Shown: positions 3,241 through 57,785, numbered from the stretch's first letter. The stretch: 64,000 bases of DNA from an uncultured delta proteobacterium (GCA_963797235.1 CAWCOX010000004.1:462400-526399); one strand, 5' to 3'. The notes: generated by a model not told the origin, from the sequence alone. Program-made: numbers and translations.

Positions 3241-4041
3241 CTACTTGGCGGGGCGCGCCTTCTGCCTGGCAAAAAAGGCTTCCAGGGCCTGCATGTGCTC
3301 CGGACTATGGTGGCAGAGGGCCTGGAAGGCGGCGGAAATCTCCAGGGTTTCTTCCAGACTCTTGCCCTGGGCCAGACTGAACAGGCGCTTGGCCAGGCGC
3401 AGAATTCTGGCCGGCTGCCTGGCGATCTCGGCCGCCATTTCCAGGGACCGTTCCAGGAGCCGCTCGTGCGGCACCACTTCGCTCACCAGGCCGATCCGCA
3501 GGGCCTCGGCCGCGTCGATGACCCGACAGGTGAACGCCAGCTCCAGGGCCTTGGCGTAGCCGATCACCCGGGGCAGGAAATAGGCCCCGCCATCGCCGGG
3601 GATCAGACCCACGGAGGCGAAGGTCTCGCCGAAGCGGGCCTTATCGCTGGCGAGGCGAATATCGCACATGCAGGTCAAATCGCAGCCCGCCCCGATGGCC
3701 GGGCCGTTAACCGCGGCGATGGTGGGCACATCCAGCCTCTGAAACGCCAGAGGAATCTGCTGGATGCCCTGGCGGTAATTATTGCGGATCTGGTCCGGGT
3801 CGCCCGCGAACATCCCCTGCTTGTTATACATGTCCTTGACGTTGCCGCCGGCCGAAAAGGCGCTGCCCGCGCCGGTGAGGATCATGACGCTCAGGGCCTC
3901 GTCAGCCTGCACCCGGAGCAACGCGTCCAGGATCTCCTCGATCATGGCCGGCTCCGTAATGGTATTGCGCACCTCCGGCCGGTTCAGGGTGAGGACGGCG
4001 ATGGTTCCCCGTTGCTCGAAGCTGATTTCCCGATAGGTCAT
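3241..4041 (-). CDS. Enoyl-CoA hydratase/isomerase (crotonase) family protein
   Basis: 266-aa ORF with a typical crotonase N-terminus (..GTIAVLTLNRPEVRNT..) and oxyanion-hole region (..GAGSAFSAGGNVKD.., ..AAVNGPAIGAGCDL..). Confidence 0.85.
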   Translation of the reverse strand: MTYREISFEQRGTIAVLTLNRPEVRNTITEPAMIEEILDALLRVQADEALSVMILTGAGSAFSAGGNVKDMYNKQGMFAGDPDQIRNNYRQGIQQIPLAFQRLDVPTIAAVNGPAIGAGCDLTCMCDIRLASDKARFGETFASVGLIPGDGGAYFLPRVIGYAKALELAFTCRVIDAAEALRIGLVSEVVPHERLLERSLEMAAEIARQPARILRLAKRLFSLAQGKSLEETLEISAAFQALCHHSPEHMQALEAFFARQKARPAK

Positions 4042-4056: not shown

Positions 4057-5582
4057 TTAAGAGCAAATTTTTTCGATGGCCGCCTTGATCTGGCAGGCCC
4101 TCCAGCCGAAATCGGTCAGGCAGGCCACGCCTTCCTTAATATAAGCTGCGTCATCAGGGTCGCGCAACAGGTCGACCACCAGCGCTGGGGCGGCCTCCTG
4201 GAGCGCCTCCAGCAGCCTTTTATTGGAGGGATAGAGATGCGCGTCGAAGCAGAAGAGGATGGTCAGGTCTGAGCGTTTAGCCAGGTGTGCCGCCTGTTGA
4301 ATTTCATCTTCCGCCGGCTCGATGGAGACTATTTGAATCTCGGGTTTGAGCCCGAATTTCTGAAACTCTTGCCGCACAAATTCCTGTTCATCGCAAAACT
4401 TCCTTTCTCGATCATGATCTTCGCATCGAGAGCTGAAAATTGCGGCAAGATCACGGCAATACCTGGCGCTGCGGGCCGCAGCGGCAGCAATTTTCTCTCA
4501 TCTTGGAGAACCTGGACGGATTCACGGCAGATTCTGGCCGCCAGCAGGGCGCCGGCCGGTTCAGCCGCGGGCTCTCCCCCGGCAAATCTTCGTTCTCTCT
4601 TTAATTTCAATCTTCTGATCCGCTCGACGCTCTCCTCCAGCTCTTTCAGGGGCAGTCGCTTGCTTTTATAGGCCTCGAGCAGTTTATCGTAAACCTCTTT
4701 TTGGGCCTGGAGGTCGTGGCAGACCAGCAGCAGATCATGTCCCGCCGCGGCAGCCAAGATCCCCGCCTCGCCGATGGGGCAGAGCGCTTTAATGGCGCCC
4801 ATTTCCAGATCGTCGCTGGCAATGACCCCCCCGAAGTTGAGCTCACCTCTAAGGTAATCGTAAATAATTCTTCTGGAAAAGGTGGCGATCCTTTGGGGAT
4901 CGGGATCGAGTTTGGGATAGTGGGGATGAGAAGACATCACCAGATCGACTCCGGTTTGAATCGCCTGCACGAACGGCTTAAGATGCACCTCCTCCATCTC
5001 TTGCCAGGTGGAGCCGATGACCGGCAGTCCCAGATGAGCATCCACCGGGGCATGACCCTTGCCGGGAAAATGCTTGGCGCAGGCTGACAGGCCGCCCCGT
5101 TGCATGCCGGCAATCCGCGCCGCGCCCATTGCCGCCACTAGCCGCCAATCTTTGCCGTAAGCCCGGATGCCGATATTCGGACTGTAGGCCTCGGTCAAGA
5201 CATCGAGCACCGGCCCCAGATTCACATCCAGCCCCAGCCGGCGCAGTTCTTTGGCCTCGATCTCGCCCTGCTGCCTGGCATAGTCGAGGTTTCCGGCCGT
5301 GCCCACCGCCAGATTGTCCGGGAACACGGTAATCCCGTCCCGGAACATGATGACCCGCCCGCCTTCGTGGTCCGCCGTCACCAGCAGTCTGCGGCCGAGG
5401 GCCTCTTCCAGATCGGCAATCAGTTTTTTAAGCTGCGCCGGAGAGTCGAAATTGATCCGGTAGAGAATTAGCCCGCCGGCATGCAGCTCTTGGAAATGAC
5501 GGACAATCGCCGGAGTGATCTTGGTTCCGGGAATACCGATGACCAGCCGTTCTCCCACAAGTTCTTCGAGTTTCCTGTCCAT
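4057..5582 (-). CDS. nagZ: Glycoside hydrolase family 3 beta-N-acetylhexosaminidase (NagZ-like), frame-disrupted
   Basis: The 420-aa ORF shows GH3 N-terminal hallmarks (..VTADHEGGRV.., ..KHFPGKGH.., ..VIASDDLEMGA..). The C-terminal domain continues in the overlapping ORF 4057-4377 in another frame. The shift maps near 4400-4415. ATG at 5582. Confidence 0.75.
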
Positions 5583-5583
5583 T

Positions 5584-6288
5584 TTAAGCAACCGTGCCTT
5601 TCAAGTAAGCCTGCCTCCTGGCCTCGGGCAACCGCTCGATGGCATACCGGAGCATGGTGCGGGGCATCTGCCGGTAATGTTTTCGTAAGAAAGCTTCCGC
5701 CACCGCGGTCTGGCGTTTTTGCACCTCCCGGAGCATCCAGCCCACGGCCTTGTGGATCAAATCTTCCGGGTCCCCCAACAGGAGGCGGGCAATTCTCAGG
5801 GTCTCGTCAAAGTCCTGCCGTTTGATGAAGTGCAGGGTGGCGATGATGGCCAGGCGCCGCTCCCACCAGTTCCCGGAAGCGGCCAACCGGGTCAGGGTAT
5901 CCTTGGGGCGGTCGTCCAGGTAATGGCCCAGCAGGTGCGGCGCCGAGACATCCACCAGATCCCAGTTATTGACGAACCGGGTATGTTCCAGGTAGAAGCG
6001 GTGAAGCTGATCTCTGACATCCTGGTCGCCGCGATCATATTGGCGAATCAGGATCAACAAAACCAGCAGCCGGTCTTCGTGGAAAGTTGATGGCAGCAAG
6101 CGCCGCGCCTCAGCCAGGGAAAGCTCCTGATATTTTTTGGCCAGGCCTCGCAAGACCGGGACGCGAATGCCCCGGAACCGGTCGCCCGCGCCGTACTCGC
6201 CCGGCCCTGTCTTAAAAAACCGTTGGAGAATGGCGGCCTGCGAGGCATCTCCCAGGCTTTCGAGCTCTCTCCGGATTTCTGCGATCAT
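5584..6288 (-). CDS. DNA alkylation repair protein (AlkD-like HEAT-repeat family)
   Basis: Starting from MIAEIRRELESLGD.., the sequence matches the family pattern (..RFFKTGPGEYGAGDRFRGIRVP.., ..WWERRLAI..). Start chosen at the internal ATG at 6288. Confidence 0.7.
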   Translation of the reverse strand: MIAEIRRELESLGDASQAAILQRFFKTGPGEYGAGDRFRGIRVPVLRGLAKKYQELSLAEARRLLPSTFHEDRLLVLLILIRQYDRGDQDVRDQLHRFYLEHTRFVNNWDLVDVSAPHLLGHYLDDRPKDTLTRLAASGNWWERRLAIIATLHFIKRQDFDETLRIARLLLGDPEDLIHKAVGWMLREVQKRQTAVAEAFLRKHYRQMPRTMLRYAIERLPEARRQAYLKGTVA

Positions 6289-6417: not shown

Positions 6418-7954
6418 ATGGAAATCCAAACCCTTTTTTCAAGCGGCAGCAGTCTGACCTGGCAGGATTACTCGGTTCTGTCAGTGATTCTCGCCTTGGT
6501 GGTTTTTGTCGGTTTTTATTCCGGCAGAGAAGAAAAATCCACCAACGACTTTTTCCTGGGGGGGAGAAAAATCCCCTGGTGGGCGGCCGGTCTGGCGTTT
6601 GTCGCCGCGGAAATCAGCGCCCTCACCCTGATTGCGGTGCCCGCCATCGCCTATATGGAAAACTGGGAATATGCCCAGTTTTTTATCGGCGATTTTCTGG
6701 CCCGGATCGCCATCACCTTTCTGTTTATCCCGGCTTTTTACCACTATAACTGCACCTCTATTTATGAATTCTTAAAATATCGCTTCGGACCGGAAACCCA
6801 AATCGCCGGCTCGATCCTGTTTTTCATCACGCGCCTGTTGGCTTCCGGCGTCCGGCTGATGGTAGCTTGTTTGGCGGTGAGCATCTTAGTCGGCTGGCCT
6901 ATCCTGCCGACCATTGTGCTGTTTTCGGTCATCTGCATTCTCTATGTCGCCTGGGGCGGGATCAAGGCGGTGGTCTGGACCAATGTGATTCAAGGCCTGA
7001 CTTACGTAACTGCGGGAATGGTGGCCATCGGTTTCCTGCTGACGCAGCATCGACGGCGGCGCCGCGGGCGTGCTGGCGATTGCCGGCGCGGCCGGCAAAC
7101 TGAAAATCTTCAACTGGGGACCGGGCCTGGCGGCATCGGGATCGGGAGCCTTCCTGAAGAGCCTGTTCACGGATCCCAATCTCCTGGTGCTGGCGACTTT
7201 GAATGGCTTTTTTGGTTCGATGGCGGCCTTTGGGACTGATCAGGAGTCCATGCAGCGACTGCTGACGGTGGAAACGAGACGAGAAAGTCAGAAAACCATG
7301 CTGCTGACCCCCATCGGCAGTTTTCTGATGATGCTCATCTTCCTCTCGGTGGGCGCCTGCCTTTATGCCTTCTATGCCCAGCATCCCGGGATGCCGCTGC
7401 CGGCAAAACTGGACAAAATTTTTCCGCATTTTATCGAGCAGGCGATGCCTCCATACATGCGGGGGCTGATGCTCTCGGCGCTGGTGCTGGCGAGCTTTGA
7501 CACGCCCTTAGGTTCCCTGACCGCTTCCTTTGTCACGGACATCTATCGTCCGGTGCTTCATAAGTCGGGAACCGAACGCCACTATCTTTTAATTTCCCGG
7601 GTCTGTGTGGTGGTTTTTGGCATTATCCTGGCGTTCATCGCCTTCATTTTCAGCCATTTTGAAAAATTCCTCTGGCTCGCTTTCAAGATTGGCGGGGTTA
7701 CCTACGGCTCTTTACTGGGGGTCTTTCTGCTCGGTCTGCTGACCACCAGGCGCTGCAACCGGGTCAATGTCGCGGCCATGGCCCTTTCTGCCTTGAGCAT
7801 GCTAATTCTGTTGATTCTTTCGGAGACGCATGTCTTCCCGCTGGGCTGGACCTGGCTGTTGCTGATCGGCACCTTTTTGACTTTTTCCACCGGTTGGCTT
7901 TTTGGCAAACCAGCCGAGAGCGTCGCGAACTCCCTCCCCAAAACTGAGAGATGA
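6418..7954 (+). CDS. Sodium:solute symporter (SSF) family transporter, frame-disrupted
   Basis: ORFs 6418-7239 and 7070-7954 are the N- and C-halves of one SSF protein (..NDFFLGGRKIPWW.. / ..GTDQESMQRLL..). A +1 shift maps near 7044-7050. Confidence 0.8.
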
Positions 7955-14471: not shown

Positions 14472-14540
14472 GATTAGCCCATGTGAAACTAATAACAATG
14501 ACTTTATATTGTTGGCAGTTGCAAATATTAATGCTTTTCC

Positions 14541-14641
14541 AGAAAAGCCAAACCCGTCGCGAGGCGAGGGCGGAAAGCCACGGGTCTCATGGATGGAGAC
14601 AGCCGGGTCGCCTGGAAGCATAACCCGGGATCCATTTTTTA
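14541..14641 (+). promoter_or_regulatory. c-di-GMP-I (GEMM-I)-like riboswitch with intrinsic terminator
   Basis: RNA reads GCCAAACC-CGUC-GCGA-GGCG-AGGGCGGAAAGCC-ACGGGUCUC..GAGAC-AGCCGGGUCGCC, followed by hairpin CCGGGU..ACCCGG plus U6. It has the same blocks as the copies at 57.4 and 57.6 kb. It also resembles the Vc2 aptamer as I recall it (CAAACC, GNRA hairpin, GGGACGCAAAGCC, AGCGGGGUUACC). Confidence 0.7.
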
Positions 14642-55497: not shown

Positions 55498-56193
55498 TTA
55501 GCTCCGTTTCCGCCAGCCCAAGCCGACCAGGCCCAGCAGGCCGGAGCCCAGCAGCAAGGCGCTGGGGGGGATGGGAACGTAGACACCGTCTCCAGGGCAT
55601 GTTCCGAAATAAAATGTTGCGGATTCAATACCCGTACCGCTGTTAACTCCTGGGATAGATAAAACGAAACTAGCAGTTTGATTAAGGAACGGGTTGTGCG
55701 GTCCGTTGCCGGCAATCGACGCGTTCGCATTGCTGTAAGTGCCGCCGGTATCAGCCGGACCGATAAGAGTGTCCTTCGGGCCTGCGCCGCCGGTCCCCAG
55801 ATCGTTGAGCAGAAAGCTTAAGGAGCCAGTTTGGGACAGCACCCATCCAGTTGGGACGGTTGAGCCAGGGCTAACGGTCCCACCCGAGGTTATAGAAATA
55901 TTTTGTGAAGACGAGCTTGTTTCTGAAATTGAGCCTGTTTGCGTGAAGCTGGTTAACACGAAAGCAAGACCGCTCAAGCACTGGGCGACACTTTTCGGAT
56001 TAGCCAATTTGTTAGTTATTGTGATGTCGACCTCGTTAGAGAGTGTGGTGATTGTGACCAACGCATCTATCGGGTTGCCACCACTTTCAGTGATGCCGGG
56101 CCATGTCTCCCAAGTCATCATGCTCGCCGACGCCGGCGTGATCCAGCATGTCAAGGCCAAAATGACCAACATTACTAAAGTTTTTCGTTTCAT
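55498..56193 (-). CDS. PEP-CTERM sorting-domain secreted protein
   Basis: Signal peptide MKRKTLVMLVILALTCWITPASA. Ser/Thr/Gly-rich body. C-terminus ..VPIPPSALLLGSGLLGLVGLGWRKRS (P-x-P motif, TM segment, basic tail). GGAGGAGGA RBS. Confidence 0.85.
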   Translation of the reverse strand: MKRKTLVMLVILALTCWITPASASMMTWETWPGITESGGNPIDALVTITTLSNEVDITITNKLANPKSVAQCLSGLAFVLTSFTQTGSISETSSSSQNISITSGGTVSPGSTVPTGWVLSQTGSLSFLLNDLGTGGAGPKDTLIGPADTGGTYSNANASIAGNGPHNPFLNQTASFVLSIPGVNSGTGIESATFYFGTCPGDGVYVPIPPSALLLGSGLLGLVGLGWRKRS

Positions 56194-56371
56194 ACCTCTA
56201 TCCTCCTCCTGACGAATCAGCTCACCCCCCCTGCTTGATTGGCTTCAACCAGCCAATCTGCCGGGGTAACTTGTGACCGACGGTCTGCTCATCTCCTTAG
56301 GCCAAATCCTGGCTTGGGTTTCCCGGTTTTTTTGCAAAAAAAAACCGGCGCGCCCTAATGTATCCAGTAAA

Positions 56372-56452
56372 GCAACCAGGCTACCCCTTCCTAAGGACCT
56401 TAGTTTGCTGCCCCCGCCTCAAGACGGGTTCTGGTTCCCGCCCTCAGCCAAA
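56372..56452 (-). promoter_or_regulatory. Divergent GEMM-like aptamer variant in the leader of the distal PEP-CTERM gene
   Basis: RNA: GGAACCAGAACC-CGUC-UUGA-GGCG-GGGGCAGCAAAC-UAAGGUCCUUAGGAAGGGGU-AGCCUGGUUGC. It keeps the tetraloop hairpin, the UUAGGAAG block and closing AACCAG/CUGGUU pairing, but GGGACGGAAAGCC is replaced by GGGGCAGCAAAC. Confidence 0.4.
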
Positions 56453-56466
56453 ACCAAACCCCGGTT

Positions 56467-56505
56467 AAAAACAGACAGGGTTTCTGCGGAGAAGCCCTGT
56501 CTGTC
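56467..56505 (-). terminator. Rho-independent terminator of the proximal PEP-CTERM gene
   Basis: On the minus strand, GACAGACAGGG-CUUCUCCGCAGAAA-CCCUGUCUGU followed by U5. Confidence 0.8.
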
Positions 56506-56580
56506 TATCCAGATGATCCATTGTGGCCGACTACGGGCGACCACCTACTTTTGGTTGCCGCGGGCCTCGGAGGTTAGAGT

Positions 56581-57177
56581 TTAGCTCCGTTTCCGCCAGC
56601 CGATACCCACCAGGCCCAACAGGGCGGAGCCCAGCAGCAGGGCGCTGGGCGGGATGGGCACGGCGGAGGTTTCGACGTCGGATTGCAGGCTGATCGTCAA
56701 TCCAGTAGTGGTCCCGTGGAGCTGCGAGGTTACGTCCTGTGCAGTTCCGTTTTCCACGAGCGTACAATAATTCACGTTGCATTCGAAGTTCTGCAAGGCA
56801 GTAGAAAAGCCGGTGGCCTCATCAGAATAGAAGGTGAGAGTGAAATCTCTGACATTTTGGAATCCATCACCCAAACTAAAATAGGAACTCCCTATAGTCA
56901 GAGTCGCGAAATCACTAACGGGCCCGCCCACACACTCAAGCAATTCTACGCCAAACGTGCCAGCGCTGAGGCTGTCCTTAGCAATTGTGCCAGTTACCTT
57001 CGCATACTCAGCTGCGAGGCTAGTCTGGTAACCATAAATGGTTCCCGCGGTAGTCACCGTGGGGTTGCCATCGGTTAAGTCGCTTATGCTGATGAATGGG
57101 GTTGTGGTGGCCAACGCTTGCCCCGGGAGCCAGCAAACCAGGGCGGCCAATGCCATAATGAGAGCCATTTTCTTCAT
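56581..57177 (-). CDS. PEP-CTERM sorting-domain secreted protein
   Basis: Signal peptide MKKMALIMALAALVCWLPGQALA. C-terminus ..AVPIPPSALLLGSALLGLVGIGWRKRS. Confidence 0.85.
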   Translation of the reverse strand: MKKMALIMALAALVCWLPGQALATTTPFISISDLTDGNPTVTTAGTIYGYQTSLAAEYAKVTGTIAKDSLSAGTFGVELLECVGGPVSDFATLTIGSSYFSLGDGFQNVRDFTLTFYSDEATGFSTALQNFECNVNYCTLVENGTAQDVTSQLHGTTTGLTISLQSDVETSAVPIPPSALLLGSALLGLVGIGWRKRS

Positions 57178-57376: not shown

Positions 57377-57470
57377 TAAAAAAGCCGCGTTACCCGTTTC
57401 AGGTAACCCGGCTGTCTCTTCCTAAGACCCGTGGCTTTCCGTCCCCGCCTCACGACGGGTTTGGCTTGCA
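57377..57470 (-). promoter_or_regulatory. c-di-GMP-I (GEMM-I)-like riboswitch A with terminator
   Basis: RNA: GCCAAACC-CGUC-GUGA-GGCG-GGGACGGAAAGCC-ACGGGUCU-UAGGAAG-AGAC-AGCCGGGUUACC-UGAAAC-GGGUAACGCGGC-U6. The terminator stem uses the aptamer 3' strand. Confidence 0.75.
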
Positions 57471-57590
57471 TGTAAACTAATTATGTAATATTTCTTGTCA
57501 AGTCACTTTCAGCTAAGTCAAGTCACTTTTAACTAATTTTTCCTGGCTTTTCGCTGGAGGCCTCCCCTGCATGACTGGATTGGCCCAAAT

Positions 57591-57682
57591 AAAAAAGCCG
57601 CGGTCGCCCTCTTCAGGCAACCCGGCTATCTCTTCCTAAGACCCGTGGCTTTCCGTCCCCGCCTCACGACGGGTTTGGCTTG
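57591..57682 (-). promoter_or_regulatory. c-di-GMP-I (GEMM-I)-like riboswitch B with its own terminator (tandem with A)
   Basis: The aptamer is identical to A except for one position. Its terminator is GCCGGGUUGCCUGAAGAGGGCGACCGCGGC-U6. A degenerate third copy lies at ~57697-57748. Confidence 0.75.
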
Positions 57683-57756
57683 TCTTCGTTAGTGGCGATC
57701 TCTTCCTTAGAGCCTTGCTCTGCCCTCATCGCCTCACGTCGGCATCATTTGTGTGT

Positions 57757-57785
57757 ATATTAATTATGAAACAACTGCTTGTCAA
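57757..57785 (-). promoter_or_regulatory. Sigma-70 promoter for the riboswitch/PEP-CTERM transcript
   Basis: On the minus strand, TTGACA (57785-57780), 17 nt, TAATAT (57762-57757). A ~60-bp tract of >85% AT lies immediately upstream (57810-57870). Confidence 0.65.

Follow-up and report, generated by a model that had tools for sequence, protein, structure and literature searches.

The element that precedes the distal PEP-CTERM gene of this locus, which we call varA, is a true homologue of the local c-di-GMP-I (GEMM-I) aptamers, far beyond chance. It is probably a relic: an ordinary c-di-GMP-I transcriptional ON riboswitch that has degenerated in this one lineage. The concept that comes closest is that of a ghost aptamer or riboswitch relic, and varA combines the features by which such an element is known: clear homology, lost binding-site residues and a neutral-like rate of change. 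As a relic, varA would be a dated snapshot of the death of a riboswitch, in which the promoter was lost by a rearrangement that put the gene behind a riboswitch-controlled unit, and in which the pocket and the terminator decayed at about the neutral rate with the helices lagging behind. Throughout, the window is the whole stretch of DNA that was analysed, 64,000 nucleotides in length.

The locus and the aptamer homologue

All elements of the locus lie on the minus strand, and transcription passes in order through the promoter, varB, aptamer 1, a promoter-like module, aptamer 2, gene 1, its terminator, varA, a palindrome, the remaining leader and gene 2 (Table 1). The protein of gene 2 gave weak matches to PEP-CTERM models of NCBIfam, its homologues carry PF07589, and its C-terminal sequence is VPIPPSALLLGSGLLGLVGLGWRKRS. 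Exact look-ups with the proteins of gene 1 and gene 2 returned no identical protein on record. At the Rfam gathering thresholds, the window contains aptamers 1 and 2, a third c-di-GMP-I aptamer (14537-14616) and a fluoride riboswitch; neither varA nor varB was detected at these thresholds. The fluoride riboswitch (RF01734, 24841-24918, minus strand) scored 41.5 bits, which exceeds its gathering score.

Table 1. Elements of the locus, listed in the order of transcription. Coordinates are counted from the first letter of the window.
Feature	Coordinates	Strand	Source or score
Sigma-70-like promoter, TTGACA-17-TAATAT	57757..57785	-	promoter scan
varB, apparently an old fragment derived from an aptamer, at the transcript 5' end	57693..57748	-	synteny; R1 8.7 bits
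Canonical c-di-GMP-I aptamer 1, with terminator (to ~57590)	57612..57688	-	Rfam; R1 105.2 bits
Second promoter-like module, between aptamers 1 and 2	~57505-57480	-	
Canonical c-di-GMP-I aptamer 2, with terminator (to ~57380)	57398..57474	-	Rfam; R1 103.8 bits
Gene 1, PEP-CTERM protein, 198 aa	56581..57177	-	ORF
Intrinsic terminator of gene 1, AGACAGACAGGG...CCCUGUCUGU then U5; strong hairpin, directly upstream of varA	56466..56506	-	
varA, degenerate c-di-GMP-I (GEMM-I) aptamer homologue, model positions 1-77	56367..56443	-	R1 51.2 bits
Weakened terminator-like hairpin of varA, then U9 run at 56344-56336	56336..56381	-	folding
Palindrome CCGG-U9-GC-A7-CCGG, i.e. terminator U-run and downstream A-run	56323..56348	-	
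Remaining leader of gene 2 (~130 nt), including hairpin at 56258-56237 and ribosome-binding site	56194..56322	-	~78% identical to L001 leader
Gene 2, PEP-CTERM protein, 231 aa	55498..56193	-	ORF

A direct repeat, AAAGTGACTTGAC, occurs in two copies within 57480-57535 (minus strand), immediately 5' of aptamer 2, and the -35/-10 module near this aptamer, CTTGACAAG...CATAATTA, duplicates that of the main promoter. The entire promoter and riboswitch unit appears from these repeats to have been duplicated upstream of aptamer 2.

The canonical copies of the window (57612-57688, 57398-57474 and 14537-14616) and those of the related loci L001, L002 and L004 bear the Rfam label 'c-di-GMP-I-GGC' because that is their best-scoring model; RF03167 indeed outscores the other Rfam models for each copy in the locus. 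Weinberg and colleagues, in 2017, reportedly defined the GGC and UAU variants of c-di-GMP-I. The column that discriminates between the two models is the equivalent of A47, where the consensus is G in RF03167 and A in RF01051. Every canonical local copy has A at this column and varA has C; none is a GGC variant by its binding-site residues, and the canonical local copies, given their A, are ordinary c-di-GMP-I aptamers by the same measure.

The homology of varA was assessed with a local covariance model, R1, built on an alignment (A4) of 11 canonical aptamers from the window and three related assemblies. varA matches this model without gaps at 51.2 bits (E 6.5e-13), and the 14 canonical matches score 82-105 bits. 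The best match of varA within the Rfam clan is to RF03167, at 27.0 bits (E 0.001 over 1.8 kb, 0.036 over the whole window). It lies under both Rfam gathering scores, 59 for RF03167 and 35 for RF01051; since 27.0 bits is the best clan match, any match to RF01051 must fall below 27 and thus under its gathering score of 35. The preliminary description of this DNA had recognised that the leader of the distal PEP-CTERM gene holds a copy that has diverged from the aptamers nearby, and the R1 score and the map of the locus bear this out. The sequence features that it had listed (AACCAG, CUGGUU, the hairpin, the core, UUAGGAAG, AGCC, the palindrome and the segment at 57748-57697) are all present in their places.

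The helices of varA are largely kept. Compared with aptamer 1, 15 of 65 sites differ, and 16 of the 18 helix pairs are standard, two of them by way of compensatory double changes. The core of varA reads GGGGCAGCAAAC (56414-56403), as against GGGACGGAAAGCC in the canonical copies, and UUAGGAAG is retained at 56394-56387, as is AGCC at 56382-56379. The stem of the P1b hairpin, CCCGUC-UUGA-GGCGGG (56413..56428, minus strand), is untouched. Its loop has changed from GUGA to UUGA with the loss of the GNRA form; the loops of the canonical copies all start with G (11 of 11, GNGA or GNAA). The P2 arm (56374..56405, minus strand) keeps nine of its ten pairs, and it is here that the compensatory changes are located, C-G to A-U at 44-69 and U-A to C-G at 48-63.

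The residues of the binding site fared differently, as the preliminary description had rightly noted in contrasting the kept helices with the rewritten junction. The ligand contacts in Vc2 are G20, A47 and C92, and mutation of G20 lowers binding 30,000-fold (PMC4744006). The three equivalents in varA are C, C and C. The equivalent of G20, within the 5' junction AACCAG (56431..56436, minus strand), has become C (56434), and the equivalent of A47, within the rewritten junction GGCAGCAAAC (56403..56412, minus strand), has become C as well (56407), such that two of the three contacts are replaced and that of C92 is retained. The equivalent of G45 in the same junction has turned into A. The columns of G20, A47 and G45 are invariant in all 11 canonical copies, as nearly all the substituted positions are; by model position, the substituted sites that are invariant there are 10, 12, 13, 22, 35, 37, 40, 42, 44, 48, 63 and 69. 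The junction-closing pair 11-36 (C-G) is kept, and the pair 12-35 is broken, as A.A. The equivalents of A18, A48 and A49 are retained. varA also keeps C at model position 34 and G at model position 66, which in our own mapping onto Vc2 are the nucleotides of the interhelical Watson-Crick pair C44-G83 (PMC4744006).

Related loci and the rate of change

The distribution of the core was explored with a degenerate pattern, open at all varA-specific positions, in 185,579 species genomes (one per species). Just two loci matched, L001 from an uncultured deltaproteobacterial MAG and L002 from a Desulfobaccales MAG. Both are syntenic, and their six Rfam aptamer matches (57-69 bits) all have canonical cores. 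A pattern scan of JGI metagenomes for the varA core produced merely two chance matches inside high-GC coding DNA. The one other carrier is L003, a contig of an independent ENA metagenome assembly, in which varA is identical (3751-3827) and the gene 2 product is 99% identical to that of the window. The presence of the identical sequence in an independent assembly indicates that varA is real; because the two gene 2 loci are near-identical, their carriers count as one lineage. No further copy of the varA core besides those of the window and L003 was found by these scans, which need an exact pattern and which distant variants could therefore escape. The word subtype in the preliminary description, which implies a recurring class, finds no support in this distribution: the rewritten core occurs in the window and L003 alone, the equivalent leader in L001 is canonical and the scans gave no other copy of the core. 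As far as such scans can test, the variant has no homologue elsewhere other than the near-identical L003, one of the outcomes for which a decayed copy had been named as the fallback.

The locus L001 offers a positional comparison. The leader of its gene 2 can be aligned collinearly with that of varA as far as the start codon. This L001 leader has a varB-like element and a canonical aptamer with an AT-rich region upstream, a strong terminator in which the P2 strand is reused, and a U/A palindrome. The aptamer has the canonical core and scores 68.9 bits in Rfam. The homology between the leaders of the window and L001 starts at aptamer position 8. On the 5' side of this point the window has the terminator of gene 1, and the flanks, at 30% identity, are unrelated. 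The L001 counterpart of gene 2 encodes 231 aa with 43% identity to gene 2. The next closest homologues of gene 2 (51% identity) likewise have a leader with a canonical aptamer. Homologues at 45-49% identity (loci L009-L015) gave no GEMM-like leader at E<=0.5, and these loci are for that reason uninformative on varA. Positional comparison with related genomes quickly tells a relic from a new class, and where an Rfam match below threshold lies beside a true riboswitch, it often represents a paralogous relic rather than a new class.

The canonical aptamers are 95.5-98.5% identical across paralogues and genomes (a difference of 1.5-4.5%), and varA is 72-75% identical to any canonical copy, a divergence of about 25%. 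The neutral yardstick was at first the flanking leader, of which the remaining part is 78-82% identical between the window and L001. As the coding sequences of gene 2 are just 54% identical, it was recalibrated on four-fold degenerate sites of two neighbouring housekeeping genes, which are 75-84% identical (a neutral divergence of 16-25%), and was upheld. The divergence of varA thus equals the neutral background, and varA has drifted at about the neutral rate since the lineages split. The retention of the helices was compared by simulation with randomly placed substitutions, under the assumption of an ancestor identical to aptamer 1 and for this single lineage, and gave P 0.022, or 0.006 conditional on the nine stem substitutions. 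This hints at selection on structure and is only suggestive.

Between window 55498-56193 and L001 6696-7391, the PEP-CTERM coding regions are 54% identical at the nucleotide level (43% at four-fold sites), whereas the leaders in front of them are ~80% identical. The signal-peptide end and the PEP-CTERM end of these genes are conserved, and the gene bodies between the two ends give the impression of having been swapped or of being mosaic. The gene upstream of varA in L003 (2950-3615, compared with window 56581-57177) is a different PEP-CTERM gene. It resembles the 215-aa gene of L002, is broken into two ORFs, and joins the same block of C-terminus, terminator and varA as in the window, an arrangement that suggests cassette shuffling at the conserved C-terminus. 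L002 has four canonical aptamers in series ahead of one PEP-CTERM gene (5207-5772, minus strand). Two of them, 5540-5464 and 5458-5382, adjoin without an intervening terminator, and a partial relic is found at 5317-5285. The two PEP-CTERM genes of L002 are separated by an odd hairpin, C7-A-U9-G10 (~4430-4460, minus strand), at the place taken in the window by the terminator, varA and the palindrome.

Expression platform and competing explanations

AACCAG (56436-56431) is complementary to CUGGUU (56379-56374), and the two had been taken in the preliminary description as the closing helix of the GEMM fold. That assignment fails: CUGGUU is the 3' strand of P2, so that the AACCAG/CUGGUU helix and P2 are mutually exclusive, and the former belongs to a fold that competes with the GEMM fold. 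In silico, this competing fold, which lacks P2 (-27.5 kcal/mol), is 2.6 kcal/mol more stable than the GEMM-like fold (-24.9 kcal/mol). The stability of varA is unremarkable, with a z-score of -1.26 for the 96-nt fold and three folds within ~5 kcal/mol (-22.6 to -27.5).

The terminator-like hairpin of varA has 13 bp, with 5 G.U pairs and 2 bulges, and ends exactly at U9. Its energy is -13.5 kcal/mol, compared to -22.5 and -24.5 kcal/mol for the canonical terminators. The hairpin shares the strand GCCUGGUUGCU with P2. In four canonical riboswitches, the P2 3' strand AGCCGGGUUGCC doubles as the 5' strand of the terminator, and such sharing is the classic design of an ON switch. In the ensemble computed without ligand, pairing of the shared strand with downstream sequence, in the terminator, has P 0.85-0.98 in the four canonical switches and 0.22-0.24 in varA; it pairs upstream with P 0.00 in the canonical switches and 0.54-0.63 in varA, the partners being P2 or AACCAG. 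In this thermodynamic ensemble, which has co-transcriptional kinetics and tertiary contacts outside the model, the ligand-free default state of varA is predicted to have shifted from OFF to a largely ON state. Part of the switching logic might survive, as the terminator-like hairpin next to U9 persists. No promoter-like site was found in the ~25 nt between the gene 1 terminator and varA by a crude consensus scan, which also missed the likely promoter at ~57505-57480.

Set beside the c-di-GMP-I class (RF01051, clan CL00126), varA has in common with it P1b and P2, the AGCC and UGC motifs, the equivalent of C92, the interhelical C-G nucleotides, the P2 strand shared by the terminator and the PEP-CTERM (surface/biofilm) gene downstream. 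It departs from the class in the two C residues at the G20 and A47 equivalents, the A.A junction pair, the UUGA loop, the score of 27 bits, the weak terminator, the upstream region devoid of a promoter-like site and the predicted ligand-free ON state. We propose that the ancestor would have been a canonical c-di-GMP-I ON switch controlling the distal PEP-CTERM gene. In the lineage of the window, all sequence 5' of aptamer position 8 has been replaced by gene 1 and its terminator. Substitutions have since built up in the aptamer at a roughly neutral rate; through them two of the three contacts, a junction pair and the GNRA loop were lost, and the terminator became weaker. The RNA of varA would no longer sense c-di-GMP. 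The terminator strand would mostly be held by P2 or by the new AACCAG helix, so that the leader would read through by default. Expression of gene 2 would presumably depend on a promoter that escaped recognition or on read-through from the gene 1 unit, in which two c-di-GMP-I riboswitches are intact, and the local sensor may have become redundant. The retained helices might have a residual anti-terminator or structural role, or might simply reflect incomplete decay.

It is possible, although rather unlikely, that varA is instead a selected leader with a ligand-independent structure ('locked-ON' or ghost aptamer), the outcome of adaptive rewiring in which the helices serve to keep the terminator strand occupied or to make the mRNA more stable. 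The overall divergence of varA at the neutral background argues against selection of this kind, as do the ill-defined fold and the occurrence in one lineage only, without comparative support and with the simulated ancestor assumed to be aptamer 1. In its favour are the helix retention (P 0.006-0.022), the two double compensatory changes, the change from C to A at positions 12 and 44, the two sites with which the new U69 could pair, and the shift of the ensemble toward the anti-terminated state. There is also a precedent in the ghost aptamers of singlet glycine riboswitches, which have been conserved widely and touch the functional aptamer through defined tertiary interactions (PMC9481103). By analogy, varA would resemble these ghosts as a degenerate remnant that keeps some structure and, like the non-binding ghost, may have lost its ligand; it differs from them in that it stands alone. 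Nor does it fit well with the tandem (pseudo-cooperative) arrays of c-di-GMP-I aptamers, of which 347 doublets and 12 triplets have been described (PMC9481103). The pair of complete riboswitches that stand one after the other ahead of gene 1 and the series of four in L002 are comparable to such arrays, but a whole gene and a terminator separate varA from the array, and varA is predicted not to be a functional member of it.

The remaining explanations retain ligand binding. A new aptamer subtype of altered specificity, in which the rewritten junction forms a pocket for another nucleotide-derived signal, is very improbable. The scaffold helices and the interhelical C-G nucleotides (34, 66) are kept in varA while pocket residues change, and this is the same pattern by which c-di-GMP-I became the c-AMP-GMP class (GEMM-Ib; Kellenberger 2015, Nelson 2015, as cited in PMC7266159), a GEMM-I scaffold with a changed pocket that serves as a precedent for a specificity switch. 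That class relies mainly on G20A, keeps A47 and all junction pairs, is found at many Geobacter loci and has intact expression platforms. In contrast, varA has C at position 20, has lost A47 and a junction pair, is confined to a single lineage and has a degraded platform. Beyond this, a second lineage with the variant was not found in the scans, the positionally equivalent and closest homologous leaders are canonical, the GNRA loop is lost, the terminator is weakened, the promoter is absent (by the crude scan), the rate is neutral-like and the core of varB is unrelated. We would give correspondingly little credence to varA as an orphan GEMM-I-derived aptamer that binds a ligand other than c-di-GMP or c-AMP-GMP through the C residues at the G20 and A47 equivalents and the remodelled junction. 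If it were one, it would be the first member of its kind, and the gene under its control would encode a surface protein of the PEP-CTERM type in a Desulfobaccales bacterium. The significance of varA would be much greater only if binding assays revealed a new ligand, which the evidence makes unlikely. Of the options raised in the preliminary description, a ligand-independent structural variant or a decayed copy fits the evidence best.

It is also highly doubtful that varA still binds c-di-GMP weakly, as a low-affinity switch tuned to very high c-di-GMP. Retention of the C92 equivalent, of A18, A48 and A49 and of both helices would allow for it, and Vc1 shows that GEMM-I RNAs can function despite weak binding (PMC4744006). 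Against it, the equivalents of G20 and A47 are both C, where the mutation of G20 alone has the 30,000-fold cost given above, and varA is under every Rfam gathering score. With the default of varA already ON, a further ON switch would add little.

The 57.7-kb element, the palindrome and other relics

Syntenic copies of varB, immediately 3' of the promoter and 5' of a canonical aptamer, are present in at least three genomes: one in the window, one each in L002 (5777-5829, minus strand) and L003 (2236-2288), and two in L001 (5833-5885 and 6323-6373). varB is without the P1b 5' strand and the P2 3' strand, and its match to R1 is partial. In Rfam, it had no match even at E<=10. The sole conserved helix, GGCGAU/AUCGCC, is 6 bp long and invariant; Alifold detected no covariation in varB, and its fold z-scores (-0.1 to -1.2) are not significant. 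As a structured motif, varB was rejected on account of the invariant helix, the missing covariation and these z-scores.

The preliminary description had seen in this segment a rewrite similar to that of varA, GGGCAG(A)GCAA, and had reasoned that two independent copies with the same change argue against decay. Neither point survives closer comparison. The motif shared by varA and varB is really GGGCA-N0-GCAA versus GGGCA-N2-GCAA, of which ~4 are expected per window by chance and 3 were observed; this shared 9-11-mer is at chance level. Relative to the common GUGAGGCG, the motif is 4 nt out of register between the two elements, and it is not kept in the varB orthologues of L001, which read GGCUAGGGUAGGG and GGUCAGAGCAGGG. 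varB appears to be a separate, older aptamer-derived relic, conserved by synteny, whose likeness to varA is at chance level. An origin of the varA core by recombination with a varB-type element (common CAG..CA, ACUAAGG) was considered and dropped. varB could be a 5' structure of the ghost-aptamer type or an old relic: like a ghost aptamer, it always abuts a functional aptamer, but unlike one it is without covariation.

The palindrome that follows varA had been called odd in the preliminary description. It is present, but it is not peculiar to varA. The same arrangement stands 3' of canonical terminators in L001, as CCGGC-U6-ACGC-A6-GCCGG and a second copy (~5985-6010 and 6478-6503), and L003 has CCGG-U7-AUGC-A7-CCGG at 3848-3873. 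Its presence with normal riboswitch terminators in L001 indicates that the palindrome is ancestral and part of the terminator region. The general form in these loci is CCGG(C)-U6-9-N2-4-A5-7-(G)CCGG, a perfect palindrome, which could be a bidirectional terminator or a post-termination hairpin.

Scored with R1, the related loci contain a graded series of relics, at 30, 21, 19, 12, 9 and 8 bits, and the aptamers near PEP-CTERM genes of this clade evidently duplicate and decay often. Among the degenerate GEMM-I copies are L004 1588-1662 (30.3 bits), L004 2073-2146 (19.4 bits) and L003 2586-2647 (7.8 bits). Both copies in L004 have a distinct 5' part, GGGKUAAAGGYAAAACCU, and one of them is still upstream of a U-run. 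Further downstream in the leader of gene 2, the hairpin GAUUGGCU-GGUUGA-AGCCAAUC (56237-56258, minus strand) is conserved in L001 (~6576-6600), where the changes lead to G.U and the pairing is preserved.
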